DNA of 64,000 nt from Naegleria gruberi (Eukaryota). The stretch is taken from assembly GCA_000004985.1 (NCBI GenBank), contig GG738849.1, one strand, 5' to 3'. The position numbers and the translations under genes are program-made. How positions within the stretch are numbered: the first letter of the stretch is position 1; each line of letters begins with the position of its first letter. This document shows, piece by piece, positions 12,608-64,000 of this stretch. The notes beneath the pieces are model-generated. The model was not told the DNA's origin. It was given only the letters and a program-made list of their open reading frames with translations, and searched no databases.

Positions 12608-14380
12608 TTATTTCTTTTTGGGATTGAAAGAATGAAAAGTCAAACCTGTTGATTGATCCTTAATAGGTTGTTCTGTCTGGTCAAATGAGTGGAAAGTCCA
12701 AGAAGAGGAAGAAATACTAGCCGAATGCATGTTTGATTTCTTAGGAGATTGTTCAGCAGAATTAACGGATGGATAGTTTGCAACAATTTGAATGGGTTGT
12801 GAATTATTGTTCGTCCAAACAGGAGGAGCAGTACCACTAACAATCTGTATTGTTGTTGCAGGTTTTCTTTCCTGTTGTGTTGAATTTGCAACATTGTTAG
12901 CAGTGGTACCTGTTGCTGCTGAGACATTCTTATTGGAAAGTGATGATTGCTGACTATTCGATTGTTGTTGTTGAATTGATAGAGTATTACTTGGAACACA
13001 ACCTTCAAAATCAGAATTTGTAAAGGTTGGGAAATTGCTAGTTACAATAGATTTAGATGATTTGCTAACCTTGGCAGCTGAACCTTCTACATTATTTCCT
13101 GTGCTGTTTCTCTTTTTTGGATTTGGTGAATCGCTATTCTTCATCATTATTTGATTGGATGGCATGTAATCAATGTGTGATAATGGTTGTGCATAATTAT
13201 TGGAATAGTCAGTAATTTTGAATTGACCTAAAGGAGGTTGAGAAACGTGGAATTGATGAGTAATATTCTTAGTAGCATTAGTTTGATTATTATTATTTAC
13301 AATTTGAGTGGACGGTTGTGCCTTAATTGGTTCATAATTTGAAAATTGAATTGTTTGTGACTGATTAGTGGAAGGTTGATAGTTTGTAAATTTAGTATTG
13401 TTTGTTTTTTTCAGTGATGTTACATTTGGTTGTTGCACTGTTTGCTGTTCTGATAAATTAATTGTTGACATCATTGGTGGAGAAGATTGAATTGGTTGTT
13501 GTGGTTGTGGATTTGCAAAATTATGAAATGTAAAATTGTTTGGAATGTTTGATTCTTTTGGTTTGTTGTTCTTCTTCTTGGATTGACCTGGTTGCATGGG
13601 AGACGATTGATTGACTTGTTCAACAAAAACCAGTGGTTGATTATTTATCATTACCTGTTCCGAAATGGTAGTAGTTGTAATAGTGTTATTACCAATTGAT
13701 TGTTGTTGAATTCGTTGTTGATGTTGTGGTTCAAAGACTTGTTGAGAATCATTTCCTCCTTGTTTGTTGAAATTATGGAACACTAGAGTTGTATTCATTC
13801 CATTGTTATTATTATTGGATGACATCAATGTTGTCTTTGATTGTTGTTGTTGAATGGATATCATATTATTAGAAGATGGAAGGAGGGAATAATTATTATT
13901 CAATGATGGTGATGATGTACTAGTGGTGGTGGTTATGATTGTTTGTTGTAAATTATTGTTATCCTCTCCATTCTGATTGATGGAGGATGTATTATTTCTA
14001 TTCAGCATTGAAAGTATCACCGATTGATTGTTATTATTACTTGCACTCATCAGCATGATATTATTATTAGTCTTATTAATATTCATTTGTATCGATGGTG
14101 GTATATTCTCAAGAGTGTTGTTATCTTTTGATTGAATTGTTGATGTGATTGTTGTTGTTGGTGGTGGTGGTTGATAGTTTACATTTGAACAAGTATCATT
14201 GGTAAGGGTTTCTTCCCCTCCGCTTATTGGTAGAGTTGTTAAGTTATCATTGGTGGAAGCTTCTACATTCTGACCATCAGATGGTTCCATGACATTCCTC
14301 AGCAATGATGATGCCGATTCTGATTCTGATGCTGGCGATGGTGCAATATTATTGAATTGCTGACTTGTTGCTTGGCTCAT
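12608..14380 (-). CDS. N/Q/S/T-rich low-complexity protein with recurring (T)FH(N/S)F short motifs
   Basis: A 590-aa ORF with poly-N and poly-Q runs. The motifs 'VFHNFNK', 'FTFHNFANP', 'THQFHV', 'WTFHSFDQ' and 'LTFHSFNP' recur. Confidence 0.4.
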   Translation of the reverse strand: MSQATSQQFNNIAPSPASESESASSLLRNVMEPSDGQNVEASTNDNLTTLPISGGEETLTNDTCSNVNYQPPPPTTTITSTIQSKDNNTLENIPPSIQMNINKTNNNIMLMSASNNNNQSVILSMLNRNNTSSINQNGEDNNNLQQTIITTTTSTSSPSLNNNYSLLPSSNNMISIQQQQSKTTLMSSNNNNNGMNTTLVFHNFNKQGGNDSQQVFEPQHQQRIQQQSIGNNTITTTTISEQVMINNQPLVFVEQVNQSSPMQPGQSKKKNNKPKESNIPNNFTFHNFANPQPQQPIQSSPPMMSTINLSEQQTVQQPNVTSLKKTNNTKFTNYQPSTNQSQTIQFSNYEPIKAQPSTQIVNNNNQTNATKNITHQFHVSQPPLGQFKITDYSNNYAQPLSHIDYMPSNQIMMKNSDSPNPKKRNSTGNNVEGSAAKVSKSSKSIVTSNFPTFTNSDFEGCVPSNTLSIQQQQSNSQQSSLSNKNVSAATGTTANNVANSTQQERKPATTIQIVSGTAPPVWTNNNSQPIQIVANYPSVNSAEQSPKKSNMHSASISSSSWTFHSFDQTEQPIKDQSTGLTFHSFNPKKK

Positions 14381-14561: not shown

Positions 14562-15455
14562 CTAGAGAACGTCCTCATCATCATCAAACATGTTATTTGA
14601 ACTCATTCCCTCACCAGACATGTCTTCTTCACTGGTGGGTGAATTAATAATGTCAATATATATCTCTGATTGTTGCTCTCTTTTAACTAAAAAATCAATT
14701 TCAACCTGAGACATTAAGCCATTACCATCAAATGATAAAGTATGATTGGTGGCAAATGCTGGTTTGTTTAAATAACTTTGGAAAGTAATCTTTACCTTGA
14801 CTGTGAAATATCCCCAACCAAATCTTGTCAACTCAAATGGTGCTTTATCCACAACAACTACATTGGGTTTAAATGTTGGATGAAGTCTATATTCTACACT
14901 ATGAATGAAATCCGAAACATTCTCTCGACTGTCCATTCTGACAAACATGGTCCACTTGTGAATGTTTTGATCCGACCTAGATATTACCGTATGCTCGTTT
15001 CCAATAAAGAATGACTTACGAATTGTTTGTGTCTGTACATATTCTCTTCTCTCCTTCTCCACTTCCAATCTTCTCATCTCGTATTGTTCTTTAAAAAGCA
15101 TGGGTAGTACATTCCGAAGTGTTAAAAGAGGACGAATATTCTTTAACGTAATCAGTGAATTATTACCATCACTGAATGGGGCTCTACAACAGGGACATGC
15201 ATTCATAGAACCATTACTAGCTAATAATCTTTCAATGCAAAATTTACAAAAGGTGTGACCACAGTGGAATCCTACAGGTTCGTATAATAAATTTAAACAG
15301 AGTGGACATTCAAAATCTGATATTACCGGATTACTGTTGTTGTTGTTATTACTACTATTTATCGGAGTGGTGTTATTTCCTGTGCTTGTTTGTTGACGTG
15401 ATGTGGTTGTTGTTGTTAATGGATTCAGACTGTTGTTATTATTATTGATAAACAT
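14562..15455 (-). CDS. RING (C3HC4) finger fused to a C-terminal YEATS domain
   Basis: 'CPLCLNLLYEPVGFHCGHTFCKFCIERL...CPCCR' is a canonical RING. 'HKWTMFVRMD...VEYRLHPTFKPNVVVVDKAPFELTRFGWGYFTVKVKITF' matches the YEATS core (H-W-T-V, LH.SF, PFE.TE.GWGEF.I.I.IFF). Confidence 0.65.
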   Translation of the reverse strand: MFINNNNNSLNPLTTTTTSRQQTSTGNNTTPINSSNNNNNSNPVISDFECPLCLNLLYEPVGFHCGHTFCKFCIERLLASNGSMNACPCCRAPFSDGNNSLITLKNIRPLLTLRNVLPMLFKEQYEMRRLEVEKERREYVQTQTIRKSFFIGNEHTVISRSDQNIHKWTMFVRMDSRENVSDFIHSVEYRLHPTFKPNVVVVDKAPFELTRFGWGYFTVKVKITFQSYLNKPAFATNHTLSFDGNGLMSQVEIDFLVKREQQSEIYIDIINSPTSEEDMSGEGMSSNNMFDDDEDVL

Positions 15456-16055: not shown

Positions 16056-18456
16056 ATGCTTCCACAACAAGGAATGACTTCAGGTACATCTGCTTCATCC
16101 TCTATCAGTGGTACTGAGCACGTTAATTTTCAGGAAATTGTTTCATCACTCCATAATGAAAATGCTATAGAATCAGCCCTTTACAAGGATGCTTCCAATG
16201 TTATCACTGATAGATTGGAGTTTGGCATTACTGTTGATGCTATTCTTGTTAAACCTAATGTTGAAGGAAGTAATGATACCGTTGTTGAAAAGATTTGCAA
16301 TGCTGTCAATGAAAATGGTGTTTCTATGCTCAGATCAGCTCTCGGAACAACAGTCATTGATCAAGGTACTATTAGAGTTGTTATGCACAATGGTCGTGTT
16401 GAAGTTTGTGGACCAGGTAAGTTTTATTGTGGTTGTGATGAAATTTTTAACACATACTTTTGGATATTCTTCCAATATCATGTTGTGATGATCATTTCTA
16501 CCATTATAATTTACATTGAAATAATAACAGGAAGATACATGAGAATTAATCCAAGAGCTCACTGGAGTGACACCTACAATTTGGAAAATGATGTTATTGT
16601 TCACGAAACTTTGAAAATTATTCGTATAAGAAAGGGTTATTATGGCTTGGCTAATTTGAACGGACAACCTTTAATTCTCGGAGAGGGTTTGCACGTTAGA
16701 AATACCAGATTATTCTCTTTTAAGGAAGCTAAGGAAATTAACCAAGAAAGAATTGAACATGGTACCATTAATATTTTGAGAATTCCTCAAGGGTACTATG
16801 GTAAGGTTATTGAGAATAACATTCCTAAATTGTTGAAGGCAGGTAATTATGTCGTTGATAGTGCTCTCTTCAGTTATCATGGTTTAGTTTCAATTAACGA
16901 AACTCATATCAAGCACTCTACCATTCAAATTATCAGAATTCCAAAGAGTTCTATTGGTTTAGTCACTGTTGGAACCAAGCCTTCATTATTGCAAGAAGGA
17001 TTGTATATTTTCAATGATCAAAATGTTACTTATAATGGAATGAAGGATATTACAGACTCAGTAATTAGACATCCTCCAATTACTAGATTTAGAGTTACTT
17101 TGGGTGAGTTGGCTCTCTGTTGGTACAAGAGTGTCCCTGTCTTTATTTCTGGTGAGTAGTTTTTCTTGATTGTTATGATGATTTTAACACTTTTCAATCC
17201 AGAACCTCAAGTTTATGAAGTTAACAGTACTGACTTTTTATTCGAAAAGTGTGTACCTGTGAAAACCAAGACTATTATTTTGGGTTCATCAATGAGAATT
17301 ATTGTTAATGAAGGTGAAGTTTGTGTTACTTACAAACGAGGTAAACTGGATATTCTTAATCCAGGTACCTTTGTTTTCACTAATGAATTGGATCGTACAT
17401 TCGAATCATACATGTCAACTAGATTAATGTCCATTCCTTTGATTGAAGATGTTTCCAAGGAAACCTTCTTGAGATGTGACACTCGTGACTTTGTTGAAGT
17501 TGGTATTAGAGCTGCTGTTTCATTTAGAATTTCTGATCCAAAATTGACTTTAACTATTGGTAAGTAGTAGTATTTTTGAAAACAGTTCTTATATCTTCTC
17601 AGTTGGTAATGAAGCTCAAACCATCAAATTAATTAAGGATCAAAGTATTGCTGCTTTGCAAGCCATTGTTAGATCTACTGCATTGAATCAATTGGCTCAA
17701 AACAAGACCATTCCAGCCTCTGAACTTAAAGAACAAAATACTCAAACAAGTGATCACAGTGATCCTAATGTTTCTTCAAATCCATCAGCTCCACAATTCT
17801 TTGAAAACCTTCACGATGAATTCATTTCAAAACTCCATGACACCTTCAAGAAGAGTTATGGTATTGAAATTGATAATATCCGTATTGAAGATTTCCAAAT
17901 TATAAATCAAGAATTGGCAACAAACATTTCCAAACAAGCCATCATTACTGCTGAAACCAGTACCAAATTGGCCAACTTGGAAGCTCAAAGAGAAATTGAA
18001 TTGGCTGGTCAAGAAAGATTGAATTCTATCAACTCTATCAAGGCTACTGCTGAAGCTTTCAAATTAAAGACTGAAACTGAAGCCAAGAATAATGCTACCA
18101 TTATTGAAGCTGAAACTAAGGCCATTGAAATCAAGACACTTGCCAAGGCCAGAGCTGAAGCTCTCACTATTGAAGCAGAAGCTGAAGCCAAAGCTATTGA
18201 AATTAAGGCTCTTGCTGAAAAGAAGAGAGCTGAATATTTGAGTTCAACTGAATTTGGTAAACAAGAAGCTCTCTTGACAAAACACCACGACATGGTTGTT
18301 CAAGCCATGAAGAGTGTTTCTCAAGTTGTTTACCTTCCTAGTGATGCAAATATGGGTTGCTTGCCTTTGCAAATGTTTGGCATGCAAGGTGGAATTCCTA
18401 ATTTCGATAGTATTACTAAGGATGCTGGCAGAAGTAATGGTAGAAAAAAAGACTAA
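16056..18456 (+). CDS. SPFH-superfamily protein, flotillin/vacuolin/major-vault-protein-like, in four exons. It has internal ~50-aa beta repeats and an EA-rich C-terminal helix.
   Basis: Exon 1 is 16056..16416 (donor G|GTAAGT). Exon 2 is 16531..17159 (acceptor AACAG, donor G|GTGAGT). Exon 3 is 17211..17559 (donor G|GTAAGT). Exon 4 is 17603..18456. The repeats are 'IIRIRKGYYGL', 'ILRIPQGYYGKV' and 'IIRIPKSSIGLV'. The C-terminus, 'EAEAEAKAIEIKALAEKKRAEY', is like the flotillin domain or the MVP cap helix. Confidence 0.55.
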
Positions 18457-19099: not shown

Positions 19100-20815
19100 G
19101 TGTCCAATCTTGTTATTGACAGTTTATTCATTTCACTTTTATTAATTGAATCAAGTGGAAATTTCTACAAAATCCTATTAGCAATCATGTATATTATTAC
19201 TGCCTTTGGACTTGTCAAGACACTTTCCTATACCATCTACTATTCACATACTCAATTACTTGTCAAATTAGCTCAATTTTTCATTCCAATTAGAATTAAT
19301 TCTGAAATTAGACAAATTGCTCATGATTTGTACAAATTTGATTTTAATTCTTTGATTGCCTATGTAATGACTTTATTTTCTATTGTAATTATATTGTTAC
19401 CTTTGGCATCTGGTGGTCAGGAATTGAAAGGAAAGTTGATTATTTTATTTGGAACTAGTTTATTACAATTAGTTCATTTACCACAAATTCAACATTATTT
19501 ACAAAAAGCAATTTCATTGGATGAATTTGTTAAATCTAAATTGACTAGTATTGTTCCTGTTGGTGGTAGTACTGAACATTCTCAACCAAAGACAAGCCAA
19601 GTAGTTTCGAATATTTCCTCCTCATCTTCTGTTAAAGAAAAGGCTAAATTATTCGAAAATAATAAGGAACAACCACAACAACAACCTATTGTTGAAAAGA
19701 AGCCAGTTATTGTCAAGAAACCAATTGAACAACCTTCAGCAACTAGTCAACCTGCTCAACCAAAACAAGTTTCCAAATTGGCCTCAACTAGTACAACATC
19801 TTCTACTATTGAAAAGGAACAACCAACCATTGTAAAACCTTCTACTGTAGTTGCCACTGAATCTATTTCTAAGAAACCAGTTGAAAAGCCTTCAAATAAT
19901 ATTCCAACTAGTCAACCAGAAATTTCTAAACCAATTATTCCAAAAGAAACAATTCCACCAAAAGAAGATACCAAATTAACTATCACACCATCAGAATCTT
20001 CTACTAATGCTGCCAATGTGAGTGGTGGTGTTAAAATTTCCAAACTCAATCTCTCACAACTTTCCAATATTCCACCTTCCACTGATAATGCAACTTCTGC
20101 TGAAACTCTTTCATCTGCCAGAGATTCTTCACGTGACAGTGGTTCTCTCTCAGCTAGACGTTCAGGTTCCTTTGTAAATATCATGAAAAATGTTCAATCT
20201 CCAAGGGATTCAATGAATTCACCTCGAAATACTTCAGCACTTGATGGAGTGACAAGTCCACGTGGTACTGCTTTGTTATCACCAAGAAATAGTAGTAATT
20301 TCAGTCAGATTGCTGAGAGAATGAAACAAAAATTGAATTTGAAACCTAAAGTTGAATCAAATGGGCCAGTGGTTGAAAGTTCATCTACTCAATTGGGACA
20401 AACTCAAAAATTGCATGAATCTCCTAATACTATGGACAAATTCAAGAAGGCTAAACTGGCTCAACCTCGTAAAGAACGTACACGTGCCAATGTCAAACAA
20501 TTACTCAATAACGTCCAAGAATCCAATGAAAATTTAATAGAGCTACCTAAACAAGACGATTTTGAAAAATTAGAACAAGCATCTAAAAATGAAAAGAAAT
20601 TTGGACTCACCAATCCAATCTTTAGATTACCTCCTCCTCAATCATCTATTTTACCATCTGCATCCTCAACTGTTGAAGAAAAAGAAGAAAAAAAGGTTAA
20701 TCTCGATAAGGTTATTGGAAAATCAAAACAACAACAAGGAATGGGTGGAATTGACTTACAATCTGTATTGAATGCAAGAAACAAATTAAAGAAAACAGGA
20801 GAAGAATTGAAATAA
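19100..20815 (+). CDS. Multi-pass membrane protein with a long S/T/P/K-rich C-terminal tail. The 5' end is uncertain and may include a small exon near 18639.
   Basis: There are three or four hydrophobic helices at the N-terminus, followed by about 400 aa of low-complexity S/T/P-rich sequence. The frame stays open upstream of 19100. Confidence 0.35.
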   Translation: MSNLVIDSLFISLLLIESSGNFYKILLAIMYIITAFGLVKTLSYTIYYSHTQLLVKLAQFFIPIRINSEIRQIAHDLYKFDFNSLIAYVMTLFSIVIILLPLASGGQELKGKLIILFGTSLLQLVHLPQIQHYLQKAISLDEFVKSKLTSIVPVGGSTEHSQPKTSQVVSNISSSSSVKEKAKLFENNKEQPQQQPIVEKKPVIVKKPIEQPSATSQPAQPKQVSKLASTSTTSSTIEKEQPTIVKPSTVVATESISKKPVEKPSNNIPTSQPEISKPIIPKETIPPKEDTKLTITPSESSTNAANVSGGVKISKLNLSQLSNIPPSTDNATSAETLSSARDSSRDSGSLSARRSGSFVNIMKNVQSPRDSMNSPRNTSALDGVTSPRGTALLSPRNSSNFSQIAERMKQKLNLKPKVESNGPVVESSSTQLGQTQKLHESPNTMDKFKKAKLAQPRKERTRANVKQLLNNVQESNENLIELPKQDDFEKLEQASKNEKKFGLTNPIFRLPPPQSSILPSASSTVEEKEEKKVNLDKVIGKSKQQQGMGGIDLQSVLNARNKLKKTGEELK

Positions 20816-43531: not shown

Positions 43532-45306
43532 TTAACTATTAATTATCTTTTCTGAAATTGTAGAAGGACAATACAGTTTAACCATTTCAGATGAAGGACA
43601 CAACAAGTAAATCAATCCACTTGTGACCAATAACATGGACAAATCAAGAGTGTTGAAATTAACAGATCTATAAAACAAGCCAATCAACACTTGACTTGCT
43701 GCATATTCAATAATAATCAAAATCATTTGTAAAAACACAAACAGAGCAGCCACAAATATTATCATGATAGCTCTTGTAAATTTGATTTGGAATATTGACA
43801 AATTATTAGCCTTTTTCAATTGAATGAATAATTTACCACCAAATACTGAAAAACCAACAACCAAAAAGATGGTCAAAACAACTGTCAGAATGAAAAATGT
43901 CAAATTGAATATTTTTGCTATTGAGGGTAGTCCAATATAAATCAAAGGTAATACCAATAAGAGACCGAACGTGAGTAAGAATGTTGCTAGTATGATTTTC
44001 AAATACTTGTGAATGGTTATTGAATTTGCTCCAACAGAATTTTTGCTATTTGTTTGTAATAACAAGTTGACCCACATTACAAAAATACAAAATAGAGCTG
44101 AGAATAAGCACAGTAAACTGATAGCTCTAAAGAAACCAGATCCTATTCATTAGCAATGATGGTATTCAATTTTAAACTTTCCAATAGAAATTGAATAAAC
44201 TTACCGATTGACGATTTTGCCTGAAACATTCCAACAGTTGCTAAACTTAGTAAATTTTCCAAAGCAGAGAAAATCAAATGCAACATTAGAAACACAATAA
44301 TTAACCATGAAATTGAAATCACCTCTTCCAACACCGCTTTTTGAATTGGCATTAAATTATTCTTCATATTCACTTTTGCATTCTTAACATTTCTGTAAAT
44401 GGTTGGAATCACCAATGTGAAAACACAAACGACCATCAATAACAAAGTCAACACAAAGCAAATAATTGGATAAGCTCTGAAAGTGAATGGAATAAACAAT
44501 GTGGAAAAGTAGTCACACTTGAAAGCATATTGCAATTGACCACATGAACATTGCCATGGAAGAAATACGTCCTGATTCAGTAGGGAAATGCCATGAAGAA
44601 GTGGAATTTCAAGTTCTGATTCTTGATTGTAATCTAATTGATGAACTGTAGAGGCTGTGAGTGAATCTATCGTTAGAGTTTGAAAATTATTGGGTGGTTG
44701 ATTGTAATTACAAAAATTTGCACTCACAAATGTAAAGCATTGTGTAGAATTGAGTGTCGTGTGAAAAGATATAAAGTCATCTCTATTGCAGTATTGACAA
44801 TAGTTGACCAAGTAGGCCAGTTCTGCAATGACTTGTCTTGTTTTTTGACTGGACGAAACATTGTAATGTTGGAGAAGATTATTCTTTACAGTGGAACTAA
44901 TGTTATTGCTCTGTTCAAAACTCTTTCCAATAAGTTGGGGTATACTATTACAAAAAAGTGAGGAACACGAATCAATGTTATATTTTGTAAAGAGTTGATT
45001 AGTCACAACAGCACTACACAGTTCTGAATATTTCGAATCAAAGAAGGGATAAAATAGAGAGAATTGAACCGTATCCTCATATCTATAATTTACAGTTGTT
45101 TCGTTTGGAATAACGATAGAAGTACATGTGAGAAGAGAGTATTGTTGTTGTGATGATGAGGAGGAGGATGGAATGTAGATCATTGAGCAATTACTCACTC
45201 TGTTAGCTCTGGTAAGTGAAGAGTGGACGAAAGAAAGCGAAATATTAAACAAGCAGACGATCAACAAGAGAAAGCAACAAAACACAGGTGAGCAGTGTTT
45301 TTTCAT
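43532..45306 (-). CDS. 7TM receptor-like protein with a signal peptide and a Cys-rich ectodomain of about 240 aa. This is tandem paralogue A, in two exons.
   Basis: ORFs 44143..45306 and 43532..44077 join via ATC G|GTAAGT...GAATAG (about 44205..44143), giving '...IGSGFFRAISLLCLF'. I count seven hydrophobic helices in total. Confidence 0.5.
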
Positions 45307-45539
45307 TCTACTGGTATCAAATGGTTCTGTTTTTTAAAAAACTTGTTTTCTTTGTTCTTTGAAGAAGAGACAATAGATCTTGGGTTTCGCTTTGTTTATA
45401 ATGCTCAAATTTCCACTTCTTTATTTGTAAATCTAGTGTCGGATAGTTCTAAGCGGCTAGCCATATTAGTGACTGAAAGGCAGACCTTAGAAAGAATGGT
45501 TTTTATTTTAAAGTTCAAAATGGTCATGCATGGAAACAC

Positions 45540-47513
45540 TTAATGTTGATAACCTTGTGAGAGCGGTTGGGTTAATGTTGTTTCTCCTGATGTTAATTTG
45601 TAGCTTGTTCCTAATTGATATGGATTCGATTCGGATTGACTTGAATCTTCCTCTGGTTCTACTTGCTTGTTTCTTCCACTCTTTTTGGTAATATAGTCCT
45701 GATATTTCTGTAGAGTAGCATCCTTGATACATGGACAGAATATTTGTCTAAATTCTGCATTTGGTGTCATTTGATAAATGATACCACTAGCCAATAAACA
45801 CATACTTAAATCCAATGTATTGAAATTCACACTTCTATAAAATAAACCAAACACAACTTGACTAGCTCCATATTCAATGATAATGAAAATTATTTCAATT
45901 AGAACAATAGCATTGGTTACCATCAAGAACATGACAAACTTGGTAAATTTGATTTGGAAAATTGATAAATTATTTGCAATCTTGAGTTTAAAATACAGTT
46001 TGGCTCCAAACAAGATGAAGAGAATGGTGAAGAAAATGGTAGAGGCTGCAGTAAGTGTAAAGAATGTCAAGTTAAATGTTTTGGTAAAACCTCTAATTGG
46101 ACTAGATTGAAGACCAGTATAAACAAATGGTAAAATTGAAAGTCCTAAAACAAATAAATAGAATAAACCTAGAGTAATTTTCAAACCAATGTGAACTTTG
46201 ATAGAATCTGTTGAAGTTCTCATTGATCCTAATAGTAAATTTAGCCACATGACTAGAATGGAGAATAGGGCAGAAATTAACCACAATAAACTCAATGATC
46301 TAAAGAATCCAGCACCTATAATTTCAATTTAATAAGTGTGAATGATAAAATAAAATTACTTACCAACTTTTGTCTTGGTTTCAAAAACACTAATGACAGC
46401 AAAATTCAAACCATTTTCAATGGCCAAAAACAAAAAGTAAAAGAATATCATAATGATAATGATCCAACTCAAAGAGAATATTTCCTCAAAAATAGCTTTT
46501 GGATAGGAGGTGAGATTAAACTTCATCTTGTGAGAAATCTTTTTGACATTTCTATAAGCAAGTGGAATGACATTACAAACAATAGTGGCAATGGCAAGCA
46601 ATGTTGGTACAATGAATGCAATAATTGGGTAGGCTTTGAAAGTGAATGGAATAAAATTTGTTGAAAAGTAATCACACTTGAAACCATAATCGTTACCTCC
46701 ACAATAGCAAATCCATGGATACGTATCATCTGAATCAAGTAATGAATGTCCGTGTACTAGTGGTGCTTGAATTGAATTCTTTGGAATTTCAGTTCCATAA
46801 TTACAGAAATTTTTAGCAGTAACATATCTAAAAGGTGAAGGAGTAACTATTGTTGAAATATTTGAATGGAATTCATTAAAGTCAGGTCTAGAACAATATT
46901 GACAATAATTCATAATCCAAGCTAGTTCAGTCACTGCCTTGTTTCTTCCATTTTTTGAAGAGATGCCATAAGTTGAATTCAAGTATGAGAGTGTTGAATT
47001 GACAAGTTTTGGAAAATTGTCAACATATGCTTGATAACAAGAAGAAATTCCATATGTTTTGAAGAGTGTTTCCTTCACATACTTTTCATCACAAAGTTGA
47101 TATTCCTTTGTATCAAAAAACTTGTAGAAAACTGTGAAAAACACAGAATCTTCATATCTAAAAGCAAATGTATTTTCATCCCAAGCTGTAATAGATGAAC
47201 AAGATAATGCCTGTTGATTACCATTATTATTATTAATATTAACATATGTACAACCACTCCAGTCATCACTTGACAACACACTACTATTATTTAAAATTAC
47301 AATTAAACCAATCAATAAAACCAATGATTGAATTTGTTTCCGAAAGTCCTTCATCTTGATGATCATTCTATTGTTGTTGTTGTTGTTACTACTTCTCCCC
47401 GTCATCGGTTGTGTGTTTCTCTTAGGGCAGCAAGAGAGAGCAGGAGGAATTAATTTTACTCGAGTGAAGTAGTGGAATTTTTTAGAAAGTTGTTCTTTCA
47501 AAGTACCAACCAC
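45540..47513 (-). CDS. 7TM receptor-like protein with a Cys-rich ectodomain. This is tandem paralogue B, in two exons.
   Basis: ORFs 46356..47513 and 45540..46295 join via GTT G|GTAAGT...TATAG (about 46355..46304), giving '...VGAGFFRSLSLLWLI'. It is colinear with paralogue A, sharing 'CQYC.R.DF', 'KCDYFST.FIPFT.(R/K)AYPII' and 'NLSIFQIKFT...FGLFYRSVNFNTLDLSM'. Confidence 0.5.
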
Positions 47514-59889: not shown

Positions 59890-60171
59890 GCTGTTCAACC
59901 ATCTAGTTCTGTTCAGTGTTTGGACGAGTTTGGTTCGGGCTAAGTGGTTGGGACAGCTGTTGCCTTTGGTAGGCAGAAGTGTATTTTTTGTTTTTGATGA
60001 AGGAGTCAGTGGGACGATTGTACCATGATGAATTTTTGTAGCAGTTACTAACATATACTGCGAGAGATTTGTAGATATCTAGGGCCACAGCCTTAGGGAG
60101 TCGTTTGTGATTGGCCCAAATGGACCAATTTTGCTTTGTGCATCGACCGTCATATTCAATGTTAAGGTTTT

Positions 60172-60214
60172 GTTAGGATTCAGAGTTGATTTATTTGGGT
60201 TATTTAAGAGATTA
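60172..60214. repeat. Subtelomeric dispersed 43-bp repeat, copy 1
   Basis: 'gttaggattcagagttgatttatttgggttatttaagagatta' is identical to the copy at 60790..60832. Confidence 0.7.
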
Positions 60215-60789
60215 TGTTTCGATAGTAAACACACAAAATAAAGTTCAACTAATATTTAGACAATTGGGTATTAAAGCTCAGGGGCTGAACCACCTTTAAT
60301 GGTGAAACAGCCTGGAACCTGCTTTGAAGGATGTAAATCTTTATTGAGCAGGTCCCGAGATAATTAAAATTTGTCTGTAAAAAAAAACTTATCAATAGTT
60401 GACCTAAGGATAAGAAAAAAACGTCAGACCAGCGATAAATGTGAATATGAGAAGAAATGTTAGTGAAATAAAGAAAATTTTACAATGTTTCCGAAACATT
60501 GATGAAAACCTCACTCAGAAATTAATCCTTTACCAAAGATTAATGAGCGCAACGGTTTTTGGGAGGGAGTGGTGGGTCCACTCTTTGTTTAGGATGAGAT
60601 GGAGATGATACTGCGTGTTGTTTCCTTTGTGGAGTTCTTGTTATTACCAGACATTTCGAATAATTTTTTGAGCATGGAAAATTTTTAACAACTCGGAATT
60701 GAGGTCGCTTATTAAGCATATCGGAATATTTTCACTTTATTTTGTAATTTACAATCAGAAACAAGTCCATTCCTCATAGGTTGGGGTTG

Positions 60790-60832
60790 GTTAGGATTCA
60801 GAGTTGATTTATTTGGGTTATTTAAGAGATTA
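60790..60832. repeat. Subtelomeric dispersed 43-bp repeat, copy 2
   Basis: Identical to 60172..60214, and both are preceded by a 'ggtt(k)gttagg' lead-in. Confidence 0.7.
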
Positions 60833-60895
60833 CTTAGTGAAGATTCATATCATTGATTATATTTCTTATAATCTATTAATGATGTAAATTAGATG

Positions 60896-60921
60896 GTGTT
60901 GGGTTGGTGGGGTTTGGGTGA
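60896..60921. repeat. Interstitial degenerate telomere-like tract
   Basis: 'gtgttgggttggtggggtttgggtg', built from G2-4T1-3 units about 2.7 kb internal to the terminal array. A weaker copy, 'aggttgggtttggtt', lies at about 61153. Confidence 0.5.
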
Positions 60922-61288
60922 GTTTTATACACTTTCATACAATAGAGTGATATTGAAATGTACCCTTTGATATTTCTGGATGGGTAGTATGATTTAGTGA
61001 TGATTCCGACAATAAAAATCATATATTGTTCATATAATTATCAAGATATTGTATAATTTATTAAATATAAAGTGGGTAATATTGAATATTCTTTGTAGGA
61101 GCGGAAGCACTTATTCTTGTCAGTTGGAGTCAGTATTGTATTAAGGTTGGGTTTGGTTATCGTTTCGTACTCATTGGATCTTCATTATTATTGAAATACA
61201 TAATCAATGATATACATCATTAAATAGGTTACAATCTCAGCTATCCAGTGGGCTATAGATTGTGTATAGTTTCTTATCTAATTATTGA

Positions 61289-62867
61289 NNNNNNNNNNNN
61301 NNNNNNNNNNNNNNNNNNNNNNNNNNNNNNNNNNNNNNNNNNNNNNNNNNNNNNNNNNNNNNNNNNNNNNNNNNNNNNNNNNNNNNNNNNNNNNNNNNNN
61401 NNNNNNNNNNNNNNNNNNNNNNNNNNNNNNNNNNNNNNNNNNNNNNNNNNNNNNNNNNNNNNNNNNNNNNNNNNNNNNNNNNNNNNNNNNNNNNNNNNNN
61501 NNNNNNNNNNNNNNNNNNNNNNNNNNNNNNNNNNNNNNNNNNNNNNNNNNNNNNNNNNNNNNNNNNNNNNNNNNNNNNNNNNNNNNNNNNNNNNNNNNNN
61601 NNNNNNNNNNNNNNNNNNNNNNNNNNNNNNNNNNNNNNNNNNNNNNNNNNNNNNNNNNNNNNNNNNNNNNNNNNNNNNNNNNNNNNNNNNNNNNNNNNNN
61701 NNNNNNNNNNNNNNNNNNNNNNNNNNNNNNNNNNNNNNNNNNNNNNNNNNNNNNNNNNNNNNNNNNNNNNNNNNNNNNNNNNNNNNNNNNNNNNNNNNNN
61801 NNNNNNNNNNNNNNNNNNNNNNNNNNNNNNNNNNNNNNNNNNNNNNNNNNNNNNNNNNNNNNNNNNNNNNNNNNNNNNNNNNNNNNNNNNNNNNNNNNNN
61901 NNNNNNNNNNNNNNNNNNNNNNNNNNNNNNNNNNNNNNNNNNNNNNNNNNNNNNNNNNNNNNNNNNNNNNNNNNNNNNNNNNNNNNNNNNNNNNNNNNNN
62001 NNNNNNNNNNNNNNNNNNNNNNNNNNNNNNNNNNNNNNNNNNNNNNNNNNNNNNNNNNNNNNNNNNNNNNNNNNNNNNNNNNNNNNNNNNNNNNNNNNNN
62101 NNNNNNNNNNNNNNNNNNNNNNNNNNNNNNNNNNNNNNNNNNNNNNNNNNNNNNNNNNNNNNNNNNNNNNNNNNNNNNNNNNNNNNNNNNNNNNNNNNNN
62201 NNNNNNNNNNNNNNNNNNNNNNNNNNNNNNNNNNNNNNNNNNNNNNNNNNNNNNNNNNNNNNNNNNNNNNNNNNNNNNNNNNNNNNNNNNNNNNNNNNNN
62301 NNNNNNNNNNNNNNNNNNNNNNNNNNNNNNNNNNNNNNNNNNNNNNNNNNNNNNNNNNNNNNNNNNNNNNNNNNNNNNNNNNNNNNNNNNNNNNNNNNNN
62401 NNNNNNNNNNNNNNNNNNNNNNNNNNNNNNNNNNNNNNNNNNNNNNNNNNNNNNNNNNNNNNNNNNNNNNNNNNNNNNNNNNNNNNNNNNNNNNNNNNNN
62501 NNNNNNNNNNNNNNNNNNNNNNNNNNNNNNNNNNNNNNNNNNNNNNNNNNNNNNNNNNNNNNNNNNNNNNNNNNNNNNNNNNNNNNNNNNNNNNNNNNNN
62601 NNNNNNNNNNNNNNNNNNNNNNNNNNNNNNNNNNNNNNNNNNNNNNNNNNNNNNNNNNNNNNNNNNNNNNNNNNNNNNNNNNNNNNNNNNNNNNNNNNNN
62701 NNNNNNNNNNNNNNNNNNNNNNNNNNNNNNNNNNNNNNNNNNNNNNNNNNNNNNNNNNNNNNNNNNNNNNNNNNNNNNNNNNNNNNNNNNNNNNNNNNNN
62801 NNNNNNNNNNNNNNNNNNNNNNNNNNNNNNNNNNNNNNNNNNNNNNNNNNNNNNNNNNNNNNNNNNN
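61289..62867. other. Assembly gap, a run of 1579 N
   Basis: The N run is contiguous. ORF-track entries across it, translated as X, are artefacts. Confidence 0.95.
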
Positions 62868-63510
62868 TACTCATCGAATGGAGCATGTTCTTATGTATAT
62901 TGTTGGTTGAAGTGATGTATTTGATAGAGTAGGTCTGACTTGTCTTTCCTTAATCAACTTTGTAAAGTCAACATTTACATTCCCATGGTACCATTTCTGA
63001 TTACTAGGACATGAAATTAAATTCTATATCATTATAGATCATCTACATTATGATGGTAAAGTTTCAATAGGTGGTCCTTTTTCCAGATTTCCACATATTC
63101 ATACAAGTTCATACAAGTTGACCCTATGATGGTTGAGGGAAGAAATCTTTAAATATGAAAGTTAAAATAAATTTGATATTCGATGTTTACTCATCAAATG
63201 GAACATTTTCATGTCAGGATTCAATATGTTTTCATGAGAAACTCAAAAGTTATTGTTGACCTATTGTACCTCACAACTTCCCTTTTCACTTGATACTATA
63301 CTTTTATACCTACAGACATGAACTATTGAAATTTCATATGAAAGTGATTATAAATGTTGTTAATGATGATATAAACTATATAATCTCATTAAAGGATTTT
63401 GAAATTATCATTCTTCCTATGGTTTCATTTTATAATTTTTAATCTGACATTATTTACAAAGTTAATATTTTATAAATTGAAAAACTAAATATAATACATT
63501 GTTCTACTCA
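62868..63510. repeat. Degenerate subtelomeric repeat with a period of about 320 bp, covering at least two units
   Basis: 'tactcatcgaatggagcatgttcttatgtat' (62868..) matches 'tactcatcaaatggaacattttcatgtcagg' (63189..) imperfectly. A third partial copy, 'tactcatcatttacaatcgaatg', lies near 63503. Confidence 0.4.
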
Positions 63511-63615
63511 TCATTTACAATCGAATGTATAATATTCAATAATTTGGGCTAGGGTTTGAACTTTGAAACATTGGGTCTGGTATTTCAATTTTAGGTTCAA
63601 AGGTTTAGATTTTTA

Positions 63616-64000
63616 GGTTTGGGTTTGGGTTTGGGTTTGGGTTTGGGTTTGGGTTTGGGTTTGGGTTTGGGTTTGGGTTTGGGTTTGGGTTTGGGTTTGG
63701 GTTTGGGTTTGGGTTTGGGTTTGGGTTTGGGTTTGGGTTTGGGTTTGGGTTTGGGTTTGGGTTTGGGTTTGGGTTTGGGTTTGGGTTTGGGTTTGGGTTT
63801 GGGTTTGGGTTTGGGTTTGGGTTTGGGTTTGGGTTTGGGTTTGGGTTTGGGTTTGGGTTTGGGTTTGGGTTTGGGTTTGGGTTTGGGTTTGGGTTTGGGT
63901 TTGGGTTTGGGTTTGGGTTTGGGTTTGGGTTTGGGTTTGGGTTTGGGTTTGGGTTTGGGTTTGGGTTTGGGTTTGGGTTTGGGTTTGGGTTTGGGTTTGG
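63616..64000 (+). repeat. Terminal telomere-type array (GGGTTT)n of about 64 perfect units, with the G-rich strand running 5'->3' toward the end. It is truncated by the window edge.
   Basis: A perfect hexamer array from 63616 to the last base. A degenerate transition, 'gggctagggtttgaac...ggtttagatttttaggtttggg', precedes it at 63548..63615. Confidence 0.9.

Follow-up and report, generated by a model that had tools for sequence, protein, structure and literature searches.

Recent cryo-EM work establishes SPFH proteins as membrane-capping half-cages (PMC13100048, 2026), which form through the SPFH domain and the helix (PMC13100048, PMC12624060). Stomatin, HflK/C and QmcA-type proteins are about 250-420 aa long and have a transmembrane helix or a hairpin ahead of the SPFH domain, while in flotillin this domain lies at the extreme N-terminus, with hydrophobic or acylated membrane insertion and no β-modules upstream. 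The major vault protein (MVP) is regarded as the sole exception, since what lies in front of its SPFH domain is a set of "unique" tandem β-domains rather than a membrane anchor (PMC13100048, 2026), and its repeat domains have been called "unique to the vault" (PMC13100048). Some MVP-like proteins have fewer than nine repeats: the Band-7 MVP homologues of Saprospira and Enhygromyxa, and Asgard MVP homologues with only five (PMC12962969). In Dictyostelium, vacuolins A, B and C are described as SPFH proteins whose PHB domain is "more central" and whose C-terminal coiled coils oligomerise (10.1101/582049); the passages on vacuolins in this literature make no mention of a repeat architecture.

Here we describe a gene from a 64,000-nt stretch of Naegleria gruberi DNA (the window) whose product, D2V2W4, places six β-modules in front of an SPFH core and a long helix. 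The family to which it belongs is neither flotillin nor MVP, but a lineage of SPFH proteins not described before, in which the protomer has a vault-like architecture. A modular SPFH architecture of this kind is not described in PMC13100048, nor is it suggested by the other titles and abstracts that we consulted on SPFH, vault-like proteins and N-terminal repeats, and a literature search with the accessions of the gene returned no papers.

Combining open reading frames with in-frame splicing, we obtained a gene with its ATG at 16056 and the end of its stop codon at 18456 on the plus strand. The spliced 730-aa protein is 100% identical to N. gruberi XP_002681710.1 (UniProt D2V2W4), which is annotated as a "prohibitin domain-containing protein", and its splice junctions agree with contiguous homologs. 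The initial annotation had marked exactly this interval, and one four-exon gene fills it from start to stop. Because intron 1 is in frame, reading through it adds 38 spurious residues to the raw open reading frame. D2V2W4 has a paralog, D2VT39. Another 730-aa protein, P0015, was considered as an identical transcript and ruled out because it is a 47%-identical homolog. The 694-aa D2VC38, a doubtful MVP relative from PSI-BLAST (Daly et al. 2012), was likewise ruled out as this gene, which encodes the 730-aa D2V2W4 and has D2VT39 as its paralog. The features of the locus are as follows.

16056-18456, plus strand: whole gene, four exons (16056-16416, 16531-17151, 17203-17559 and 17603-18456), 730-aa product.
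16056-16190, plus strand: Ser-rich N-terminal segment, aa 1-45, poorly conserved and predicted to be disordered.
16191-16337, plus strand: small N-terminal region, aa 46-94, conserved and containing helices, 'ITDxLE...LLVKPN...VN..G'.
16338-16607, plus strand: β-module R0, aa 95-146, degenerate and spanning intron 1; repeat HMM i-E 4.9e-5.
16417-16530, plus strand: intron 1, 114 nt, phase 1, GTAAGT...AG.
16608-16763, plus strand: β-module R1, aa 147-198, 'IIRIRKGYYGL...'.
16764-16919, plus strand: β-module R2, aa 199-250, 'ILRIPQGYYGKV...'.
16920-17078, plus strand: β-module R3, aa 251-303, 'IIRIPKSSIGLV...'.
17079-17288, plus strand: β-module R4, aa 304-356, 'ITRFRVTLGELAL...', spanning intron 2; repeat HMM i-E 1.3e-14.
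17152-17202, plus strand: intron 2, 51 nt, phase 1, GTGAGT...AG.
17289-17447, plus strand: β-module R5, aa 357-409, first part of the Band_7 domain; repeat HMM i-E 7e-4.
17448-17907, plus strand: SPFH α/β core, aa 410-548, including a disordered insert (about aa 484-510); spans intron 3.
17560-17602, plus strand: intron 3, 43 nt, phase 1, GTAAGT...AG.
17908-18309, plus strand: long EA-rich helical region, aa 549-682, about 130 residues, the counterpart of the region that forms the coiled coil or cap helix in SPFH cage proteins.
18310-18399, plus strand: C-terminal motif 'VVYLPSDANMGCLPLQMFG', aa 683-712, conserved; the aligned C-terminal segment in HflK reads 'KVLVNDKGGNLMVLPLDQML'.

The most conspicuous part of the protein is its array of β-modules. 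Three strings quoted in the initial annotation do occur, at aa 150-160, 202-213 and 254-265, giving a period of 52 aa, and the pairwise BLOSUM62 local scores of R1, R2 and R3 (84-92; z = 15-18) were reached by none of 500 shuffles. Three or four repeats had been counted initially; the repeats are real, but the number was too low, since profile methods find six modules of about 52 aa (R0-R5), with R1-R3 obvious and R4 and R0 added by profiles. R1-R4 match one another in hhalign at 97.6-99.5% (R4 against R1-R3 at 97.6-98.3%), and the iterated repeat HMM recovers them at i-E 1e-14 to 1e-22. An extra copy of the R4 type is present in one family member, P0003.

The two outer modules were recovered with a profile pooled from R1-R4. 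It scored 35.0 against R0 (null 9.1±2.0, 0/100 shuffles) and 43.0 against R5 (E 9e-10; null 9.0±2.1, maximum 15.3, 0/100). R5 is also where the Band_7 domain begins: mapped through the Band_7 matches of three members, position 2 of the Pfam profile falls on aa 361 of D2V2W4. Single modules scanned against Pfam gave no Band_7 match, so the link between modules and Band_7 depends on the within-family profile comparison with its shuffle null and on this mapping. On that footing all six modules are shown to be mutually homologous, with the last, R5, as the start of Band_7, and the modules are tandem duplications of the SPFH N-terminal β-subdomain. The resemblance of the repeats to the start of SPFH domains, noticed at the outset, reflects demonstrable homology. 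A repeat-only structure model built from exon 2 has a pLDDT of 90.6 and a pTM of 0.72; the β-array is predicted with high confidence, and R1-R3 adopt β-structure in it. A profile of 37 repeat units had no matches among PDB sequences.

Downstream of the modules, the protein follows the plan of stomatin, HflK/C and QmcA-type cage proteins, namely a homologous SPFH α/β core and then a long helix. A profile of 110 family sequences matches stomatin SPFH at E 5e-12 and HflK at 5e-11, and a Foldseek search with the model of an ortholog returned HflC (4e-10) and stomatin (6e-10), as well as erlin and prohibitin, over a range of 4e-10 to 1e-7. Taken singly, D2V2W4 had no Pfam match at E<=10, and phmmer against the PDB gave only insignificant IFI204 matches; its membership therefore rests on family-level profiles and structure. 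Band_7 was matched in 4 of 12 close relatives and in 7 of the 10 more distant members tested. By these profiles and predicted structures the family is part of the SPFH/Band 7 superfamily (Pfam PF01145, clan CL0433), and the SPFH-like character first ascribed to the protein is upheld.

The EA-rich C-terminus, initially likened to flotillin or to the MVP cap helix, is indeed a long helix of SPFH type. In the AlphaFold2 model of the N. fowleri ortholog, helices cover residues 561-694, and the helical part of the family profile aligns with HflK 252-400, flotillin-1 244-390 (E 1e-7) and MVP 632-800. In the C-terminal motif, Y690 is invariant and N696 near-invariant across the family. HflK shares this element too: its 'KVLVND..NLMVLPLDQML' aligns with the family's 'kvvylpsnan..pl..lf', the motif written 'VVYLPS...LPLQ'.

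The N-terminus is where D2V2W4 departs from these anchored proteins. It has five extra copies of the N-terminal β-subdomain and a small helical N-terminal region in place of their anchor, within 730 aa. No transmembrane or hairpin segment was found (maximum 19-residue Kyte-Doolittle mean, 1.14), the N-terminus lacks Met-Gly, and there is no hydrophobic or obvious lipidation segment; D2V2W4 may be lipidated. MVP, the known exception within the SPFH clan, is likewise without a membrane-anchoring element (PMC13100048). The residues equivalent to aa 1-45 have a pLDDT of about 30-50 in the ortholog model and no conservation across homologs. The adjoining aa 46-94 are kept across the family, with helices at 77-80 and 90-105 in the ortholog model, and their position predicts that they would lie at the open rim of any assembly.

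Comparison with MVP required a full-length model, for which we used that of the N. fowleri ortholog (66% identical to D2V2W4); with a pTM of 0.46, it leaves the relative placement of rod, SPFH domain and helix uncertain. MVP chains took ranks 1-12 in the Foldseek search with this model (E 4e-15 to 1.5e-10, about 690-800 aligned columns), with all other SPFH cage proteins behind them and flotillin at rank 38. In the model, the two proteins are collinear: tandem β-domains of about 50-55 aa lead into an SPFH-type shoulder, a long helix and a C-terminal closure. The differences are that MVP has nine repeats and D2V2W4 six modules, and that the SPFH core of D2V2W4 is stomatin/HflK-like. The family profile matched the cap helix and shoulder end of MVP (residues 632-800) and left the rest of MVP unmatched. 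With the structure prediction proposed at the outset and this structural search, the suggested likeness to MVP stands for the layout of the whole chain; the repeats gave no significant sequence or fold match to those of MVP.

This distinction bears on whether D2V2W4 could belong to the MVP/vault lineage, as a true but highly divergent member or as a sister, with modules homologous to MVP repeats and protomers that form closed, membrane-free vault-like particles. Several observations point that way. Over the whole chain, no other SPFH protein matches the structure as well as MVP does, the modules fall within the MVP range in length (~52 aa) and count (2-9), and D2V2W4 lacks a membrane anchor. 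The existence of Asgard MVP homologues with only five repeats (PMC12962969) also fits, as do the best MVP match in hhalign, repeat R1, and the top Foldseek probability of MVP in the repeat-only search (0.47, a fold match that is not significant). The repeats themselves gave a different picture. Vault (PF01505 and related) was not matched at E<=10 in D2V2W4 and 11 relatives or in 37 isolated modules, nor at E<=1 in 10 further members; MVP_shoulder (PF11978) was never matched in D2V2W4, its close relatives or the 10 further members. The repeat HMM with filters off found nothing in human MVP, and hhalign scores of modules against MVP repeats were not above those of shuffles. A direct relationship of the modules to vault repeats did not emerge from these comparisons. 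The bacterial and Asgard MVP-like proteins, which resemble D2V2W4 in having N-terminal repeats, a long helix and a domain of Band-7-like or shoulder type, differ in just this respect: they show MVP homology by sequence or as reciprocal structural best matches, whereas the D2V2W4 family has no detectable MVP-repeat signal and its repeats come from its own SPFH N-terminus. N. gruberi also carries separate MVP genes. We consider membership in the vault lineage unlikely.

D2V2W4 might instead be the functional equivalent, possibly the ortholog, of Dictyostelium vacuolins or of flotillin, a scaffold of endo-lysosomal or phagosomal membrane microdomains in which the modules are a mere spacer or membrane-binding region. 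Among proteins studied by experiment, and going by the passages that describe them, only the vacuolins compare with D2V2W4 in gross layout: these SPFH proteins, also from an amoeba, have a centrally placed PHB domain that follows an N-terminal extension, and coiled coils (10.1101/582049), a likeness drawn from the literature description. The family is abundant in phagotrophic amoebae, its helical region aligns with flotillin-1, and two short members, P0056 and P0061, have Cys-rich hydrophobic stretches upstream of the modules, which suggests lipid anchoring in some members. Set against this, D2V2W4 itself has no such hydrophobic or lipidation segment, and no vacuolin-named protein was among the matches from homolog searches and cluster look-ups. 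Flotillin-1/2 share the SPFH superfamily and an EA-rich helical region, but D2V2W4 has about 356 residues of modules before its SPFH domain. The HMM scan for Band_7, Flot, Vault and MVP_shoulder that had been proposed gave none of the four in D2V2W4 (including Flot, PF15975), and in members only Band_7 and weak, sub-threshold Flot (3 of 12 members, best E 0.0046). With its low structural rank, flotillin identity does not hold up, and the result named beforehand as refuting the initial reading, a clean assignment to an ordinary flotillin or vacuolin, did not come out of the Pfam scans. Equivalence to vacuolins or flotillin seems to us improbable.

The explanation we favour, and hold to be somewhat on the probable side, is that D2V2W4 represents an SPFH branch with a tandemly duplicated N-terminal β-subdomain, whose protomers form a tall vault-like cage. 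By analogy with other SPFH proteins, we infer the oligomerisation, cage formation and localisation of D2V2W4, and the assembly would probably be a tall homo-oligomeric cage. Protomers would pack laterally by way of the SPFH domain and helix, as they do in all SPFH proteins of known structure, and build a large ring or dome with its apex closed by the C-terminal motif. The stacked β-modules would then extend the wall to a tall barrel, as the repeats of MVP do in vaults, and their number would set wall height. At the open rim, the conserved N-terminal region could touch either a membrane, as in a half-cage of flotillin or vacuolin type, or a second half-cage, as in a vault.

The favoured explanation thus offers a testable model for turning a short SPFH dome into a tall barrel, and the number of modules, which the repeat HMM puts at 2-9 per member, forms a natural series in which module number could be tested against cage height. 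P0056, for example, has four modules and P0014 nine, and the family as a whole supplies more than 500 module units. The lineage is large, widespread and unstudied, has an MVP-like kind of architecture, and allows its repeats to be traced to their origin: the N-terminal β-subdomain of the SPFH domain itself was duplicated. If a link to the MVP repeats were true, the source of the vault repeats would be explained. It is tempting to go further and see in the family an extant relative of the path along which vaults evolved, with MVP repeats likewise derived as tandem copies of the N-terminal β-subdomain of an SPFH domain. Protists would then have a second type of tall SPFH cage resembling vaults, not seen so far, which giant viruses and intracellular bacteria carry as well; we regard this extension as doubtful.

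At 50% identity the family comprises 1,265 representatives. They are distributed over Heterolobosea, Amoebozoa, Metamonada and Rhizaria, together with a giant virus and a Rickettsiella, and the last two occurrences suggest that amoebae and their intracellular parasites may exchange members of the family.

A single protein-coding gene fills 16056-18456 (+) exactly. Its raw open reading frames are interrupted by three short introns:

16417-16530 (+), intron 1, 114 nt, phase 1, canonical GT..AG
17152-17202 (+), intron 2, phase 1, canonical GT..AG
17560-17602 (+), intron 3, phase 1, canonical GT..AG

Because intron 1 is 114 nt long and in frame, it adds 38 spurious residues to the raw translation. 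The spliced product has 730 aa, all three splice junctions agree with contiguous homologs (GPG/RYM, FIS/EPQ, LTI/VGN), and every residue is identical to XP_002681710.1 (EFC48966.1; UniProt D2V2W4), a gene previously annotated solely as a generic prohibitin-domain protein. D2V2W4 was absent from our homolog searches because its 90% cluster representative is a 206-aa fragment. It has a paralog in N. gruberi (D2VT39, 78% identical) and an ortholog in N. fowleri (FDP41_005976, 66% identical).

[quoted passage not shown] Pairwise alignments among R1, R2 and R3 give z = 15-18, scores reached in 0 of 500 shuffles. When family sub-alignments are compared with hhalign, homology of R4 (aa 304-356) with R1-R3 is seen at 97.6-98.3%, while R5 (aa 357-409) proves related to R1-R4 (89-95%) and R0 (aa 95-146) to R3 (91%). 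Column-shuffled nulls served to calibrate these links. Pooled into one profile, R1-R4 score 43.0 against R5 (null 9.0±2.1, maximum 15.3, 0/100) and 35.0 against R0 (null 9.1±2.0, maximum 18.3, 0/100). An HMM iterated on 521 units recovers all six modules in D2V2W4.

Position 2 of the Pfam Band_7 profile maps to query residue 361 via three independent members whose Band_7 match begins at that profile position. Judged from this sequence mapping, R5 is the start of D2V2W4's own SPFH domain, which makes the modules tandem duplicates of the SPFH N-terminal β-subdomain. The proposed likeness to the start of SPFH domains thus amounts to homology, through the R5/Band_7 mapping and the profiles. Isolated modules do not reach the Band_7 model in Pfam, so the link between modules and SPFH domain is within-family evidence.

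Downstream of R5 sits the SPFH α/β core. The profile of 110 family sequences matches the SPFH domains of stomatins (5e-12) and HflK (5e-11), followed by QmcA, PH1511 stomatin, HflC, erlin and prohibitin. The core is followed by about 130 residues of Glu/Ala-rich helix, which the initial annotation likened to flotillin or the MVP cap helix. It does align with helical parts of flotillin-1 (residues 244-390) and MVP (residues 632-800), but also of HflK, and since such regions are low-complexity coiled coils, the matches are architectural rather than diagnostic. At the C-terminus, a conserved tail (VVYLPSDANMGCLPLQMFG) can be aligned to the C-terminal segment of HflK (KVLVNDKGGNLMVLPLDQML); we take this segment to close the apex of a cage, as in HflK/C and stomatin structures. 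Ahead of R0 lie a disordered Ser-rich segment and then a small conserved region with helices. D2V2W4 has no transmembrane-grade hydrophobic segment (hydropathy averaged over 19 residues peaks at 1.14), and it does not begin with Met-Gly. Its core, helix and C-terminal motif make it a member of the SPFH superfamily, but it lacks the usual membrane anchor.

Does the protein have a vacuolin, flotillin or MVP intermediate architecture, as was suggested? An AlphaFold2 model of the N. fowleri ortholog, built with the family alignment, has pLDDT of about 90 across residues 70-490, with an overall pTM of only 0.46. In Foldseek against the PDB, MVP takes the first 12 ranks for this full-length model, with E from 4e-15 to 1.5e-10 and 10-13% identity over 690-799 aligned columns, followed by HflC, stomatin, erlin, QmcA and prohibitin over about 250-350 columns. 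Among solved SPFH proteins, MVP is therefore the closest in whole-chain layout. Flotillin, another option raised, appears only at rank 38 (6e-7), and D2V2W4 is not a flotillin. Exon 2 of the window gene (aa 122-327; R1-R3 together with the end of R0 and the beginning of R4) is modeled at pLDDT 90.6 and pTM 0.72 as an all-β array with a strict period of 52 residues and six strands in each period. The repeat-only model gave no significant Foldseek match: unrelated β-rich proteins scored best (E 0.04), with MVP at rank 26 (E 0.2).

No sequence measure makes D2V2W4 an MVP. No family member tested matches the Pfam Vault or MVP_shoulder models, and the iterated repeat HMM does not match a human MVP sequence, identical to PDB chain 11dr_A at 893 of 893 residues, even with filters disabled and a cutoff of E<=10. 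The top hhalign match in MVP is residues 6-48, the very IIRIPPYHYIHV repeat singled out initially; it scores 15.2 (probability 0.9%), a value equalled or exceeded in 3 of 20 shuffles of MVP 1-520, so this likeness, real as a string, is not separable from chance. D2V2W4 thus resembles MVP in architecture, and homology between their repeats is not demonstrable. N. gruberi also encodes MVPs separately: D2V5B9 and D2W0Z9 are short and carry an MVP_shoulder domain (PMC3595041). That MVP repeats share the SPFH-duplication origin, with D2V2W4-type proteins forming a second class of vault-like cage, seems to us improbable, though of high interest if true. Going by published descriptions, only the vacuolins, among proteins studied experimentally, share a similar gross layout.

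Word-indexed searches suggested about a dozen family members; an exhaustive profile search returned 1,265 representatives at 50% identity (E<=1e-3), 325 of them at E<=1e-30. Those of at least 560 aa carry 2 to 9 modules (mode 5). Homolog P0014 (Phalansterium) has 9, and homolog P0053 has 8, with near-perfect 'HGSIHIVRVPxGKxAKIW' units. Members include:

Heterolobosea: Naegleria
Amoebozoa: Physarum, Phalansterium, Soliformovum
Metamonada: Carpediemonas, Hexamita
Rhizaria: Amorphochlora, Elphidium
Giant virus: P0019, Harvfovirus MAG, AYV80399.1
Bacteria: P0121, Rickettsiella endosymbiont, WP_342227790.1, on a 1.68-Mb bacterial contig
Bacteria: P0095, Oligoflexales MAG

In what is otherwise a family of protists, their presence in a giant virus and in intracellular or predatory bacteria suggests horizontal transfer between amoebae and their parasites. 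Two short members of about 590-600 aa with 4 modules, P0056 (aa ~83-105) and P0061 (aa ~80-95), have a Cys-rich hydrophobic stretch before the modules (e.g., SCFCKMMSVLCCPIIPCLWCNRC) that resembles a palmitoylated membrane hairpin and is absent from D2V2W4. The family may hold both membrane- or lipid-anchored and anchor-less forms, D2V2W4 being anchor-less.

SPFH proteins of known structure all oligomerise laterally via the SPFH domain and helix (PMC13100048, PMC12624060). By analogy, D2V2W4 protomers would associate sideways through the same parts into a ring or dome, the β-modules would lengthen its wall, and the N-terminal region would lie at the open rim, contacting either a membrane (vacuolin- or flotillin-like) or a second half-cage (vault-like). 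The repeat anatomy and its origin we regard as very probable, and much surer than the cage. The overall picture, in which the observed anatomy (duplicated modules, SPFH core, helix, C-terminal motif, no anchor, vault-like layout) is joined to lateral assembly with a module-extended wall, is somewhat favored; for the putative cage itself the balance is roughly even. A literature search on the accessions found no paper mentioning them. PMC13100048 contains no such architecture, nor do titles and abstracts of the other papers listed in a targeted search suggest it; the repeat architecture, its SPFH N-terminal origin and the family size appear to be undescribed.

Three N/Q/S/T-rich low-complexity ORFs flank the gene:

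12608-14380 (-)
14562-15455 (-)
19100-20815 (+)

One of them (297 aa) starts with a Cys/His-rich, RING-like motif; none of the three has an obvious functional tie to the SPFH gene. The whole 64,000-nt window yielded no tRNA genes. Its GC content is roughly 33%, which fits N. gruberi as the source, as do the synteny with N. fowleri and the terminal TTTGGG array described below. In N. fowleri, the ortholog (locus L001, 8001-11642) takes up about 3.6 kb to encode 742 aa. Its coding sequence matches 16056-18456 in about eight separate open segments, which implies that introns are far more numerous there than in N. gruberi, with its three, and that the orthologs differ markedly in intron density. 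An 871-aa gene adjoining it (L001 12889-15822) has two adjacent paralogous homologs in the window at 43565-47297 (41-64% identity), which indicates loose synteny with N. fowleri and local tandem duplication in N. gruberi. At the extreme 3' end, 63612-64000 holds 65 tandem TTTGGG copies (99% matches), the G-rich strand directed toward the window end; ahead of them, at 60001-63611, lie about 3.6 kb with a GC content of roughly 20% and strong GC skew. As TTTGGG is the candidate telomere repeat of N. gruberi (PMC3622300), it appears that the window runs through an AT-rich subtelomere to the end of a chromosome.
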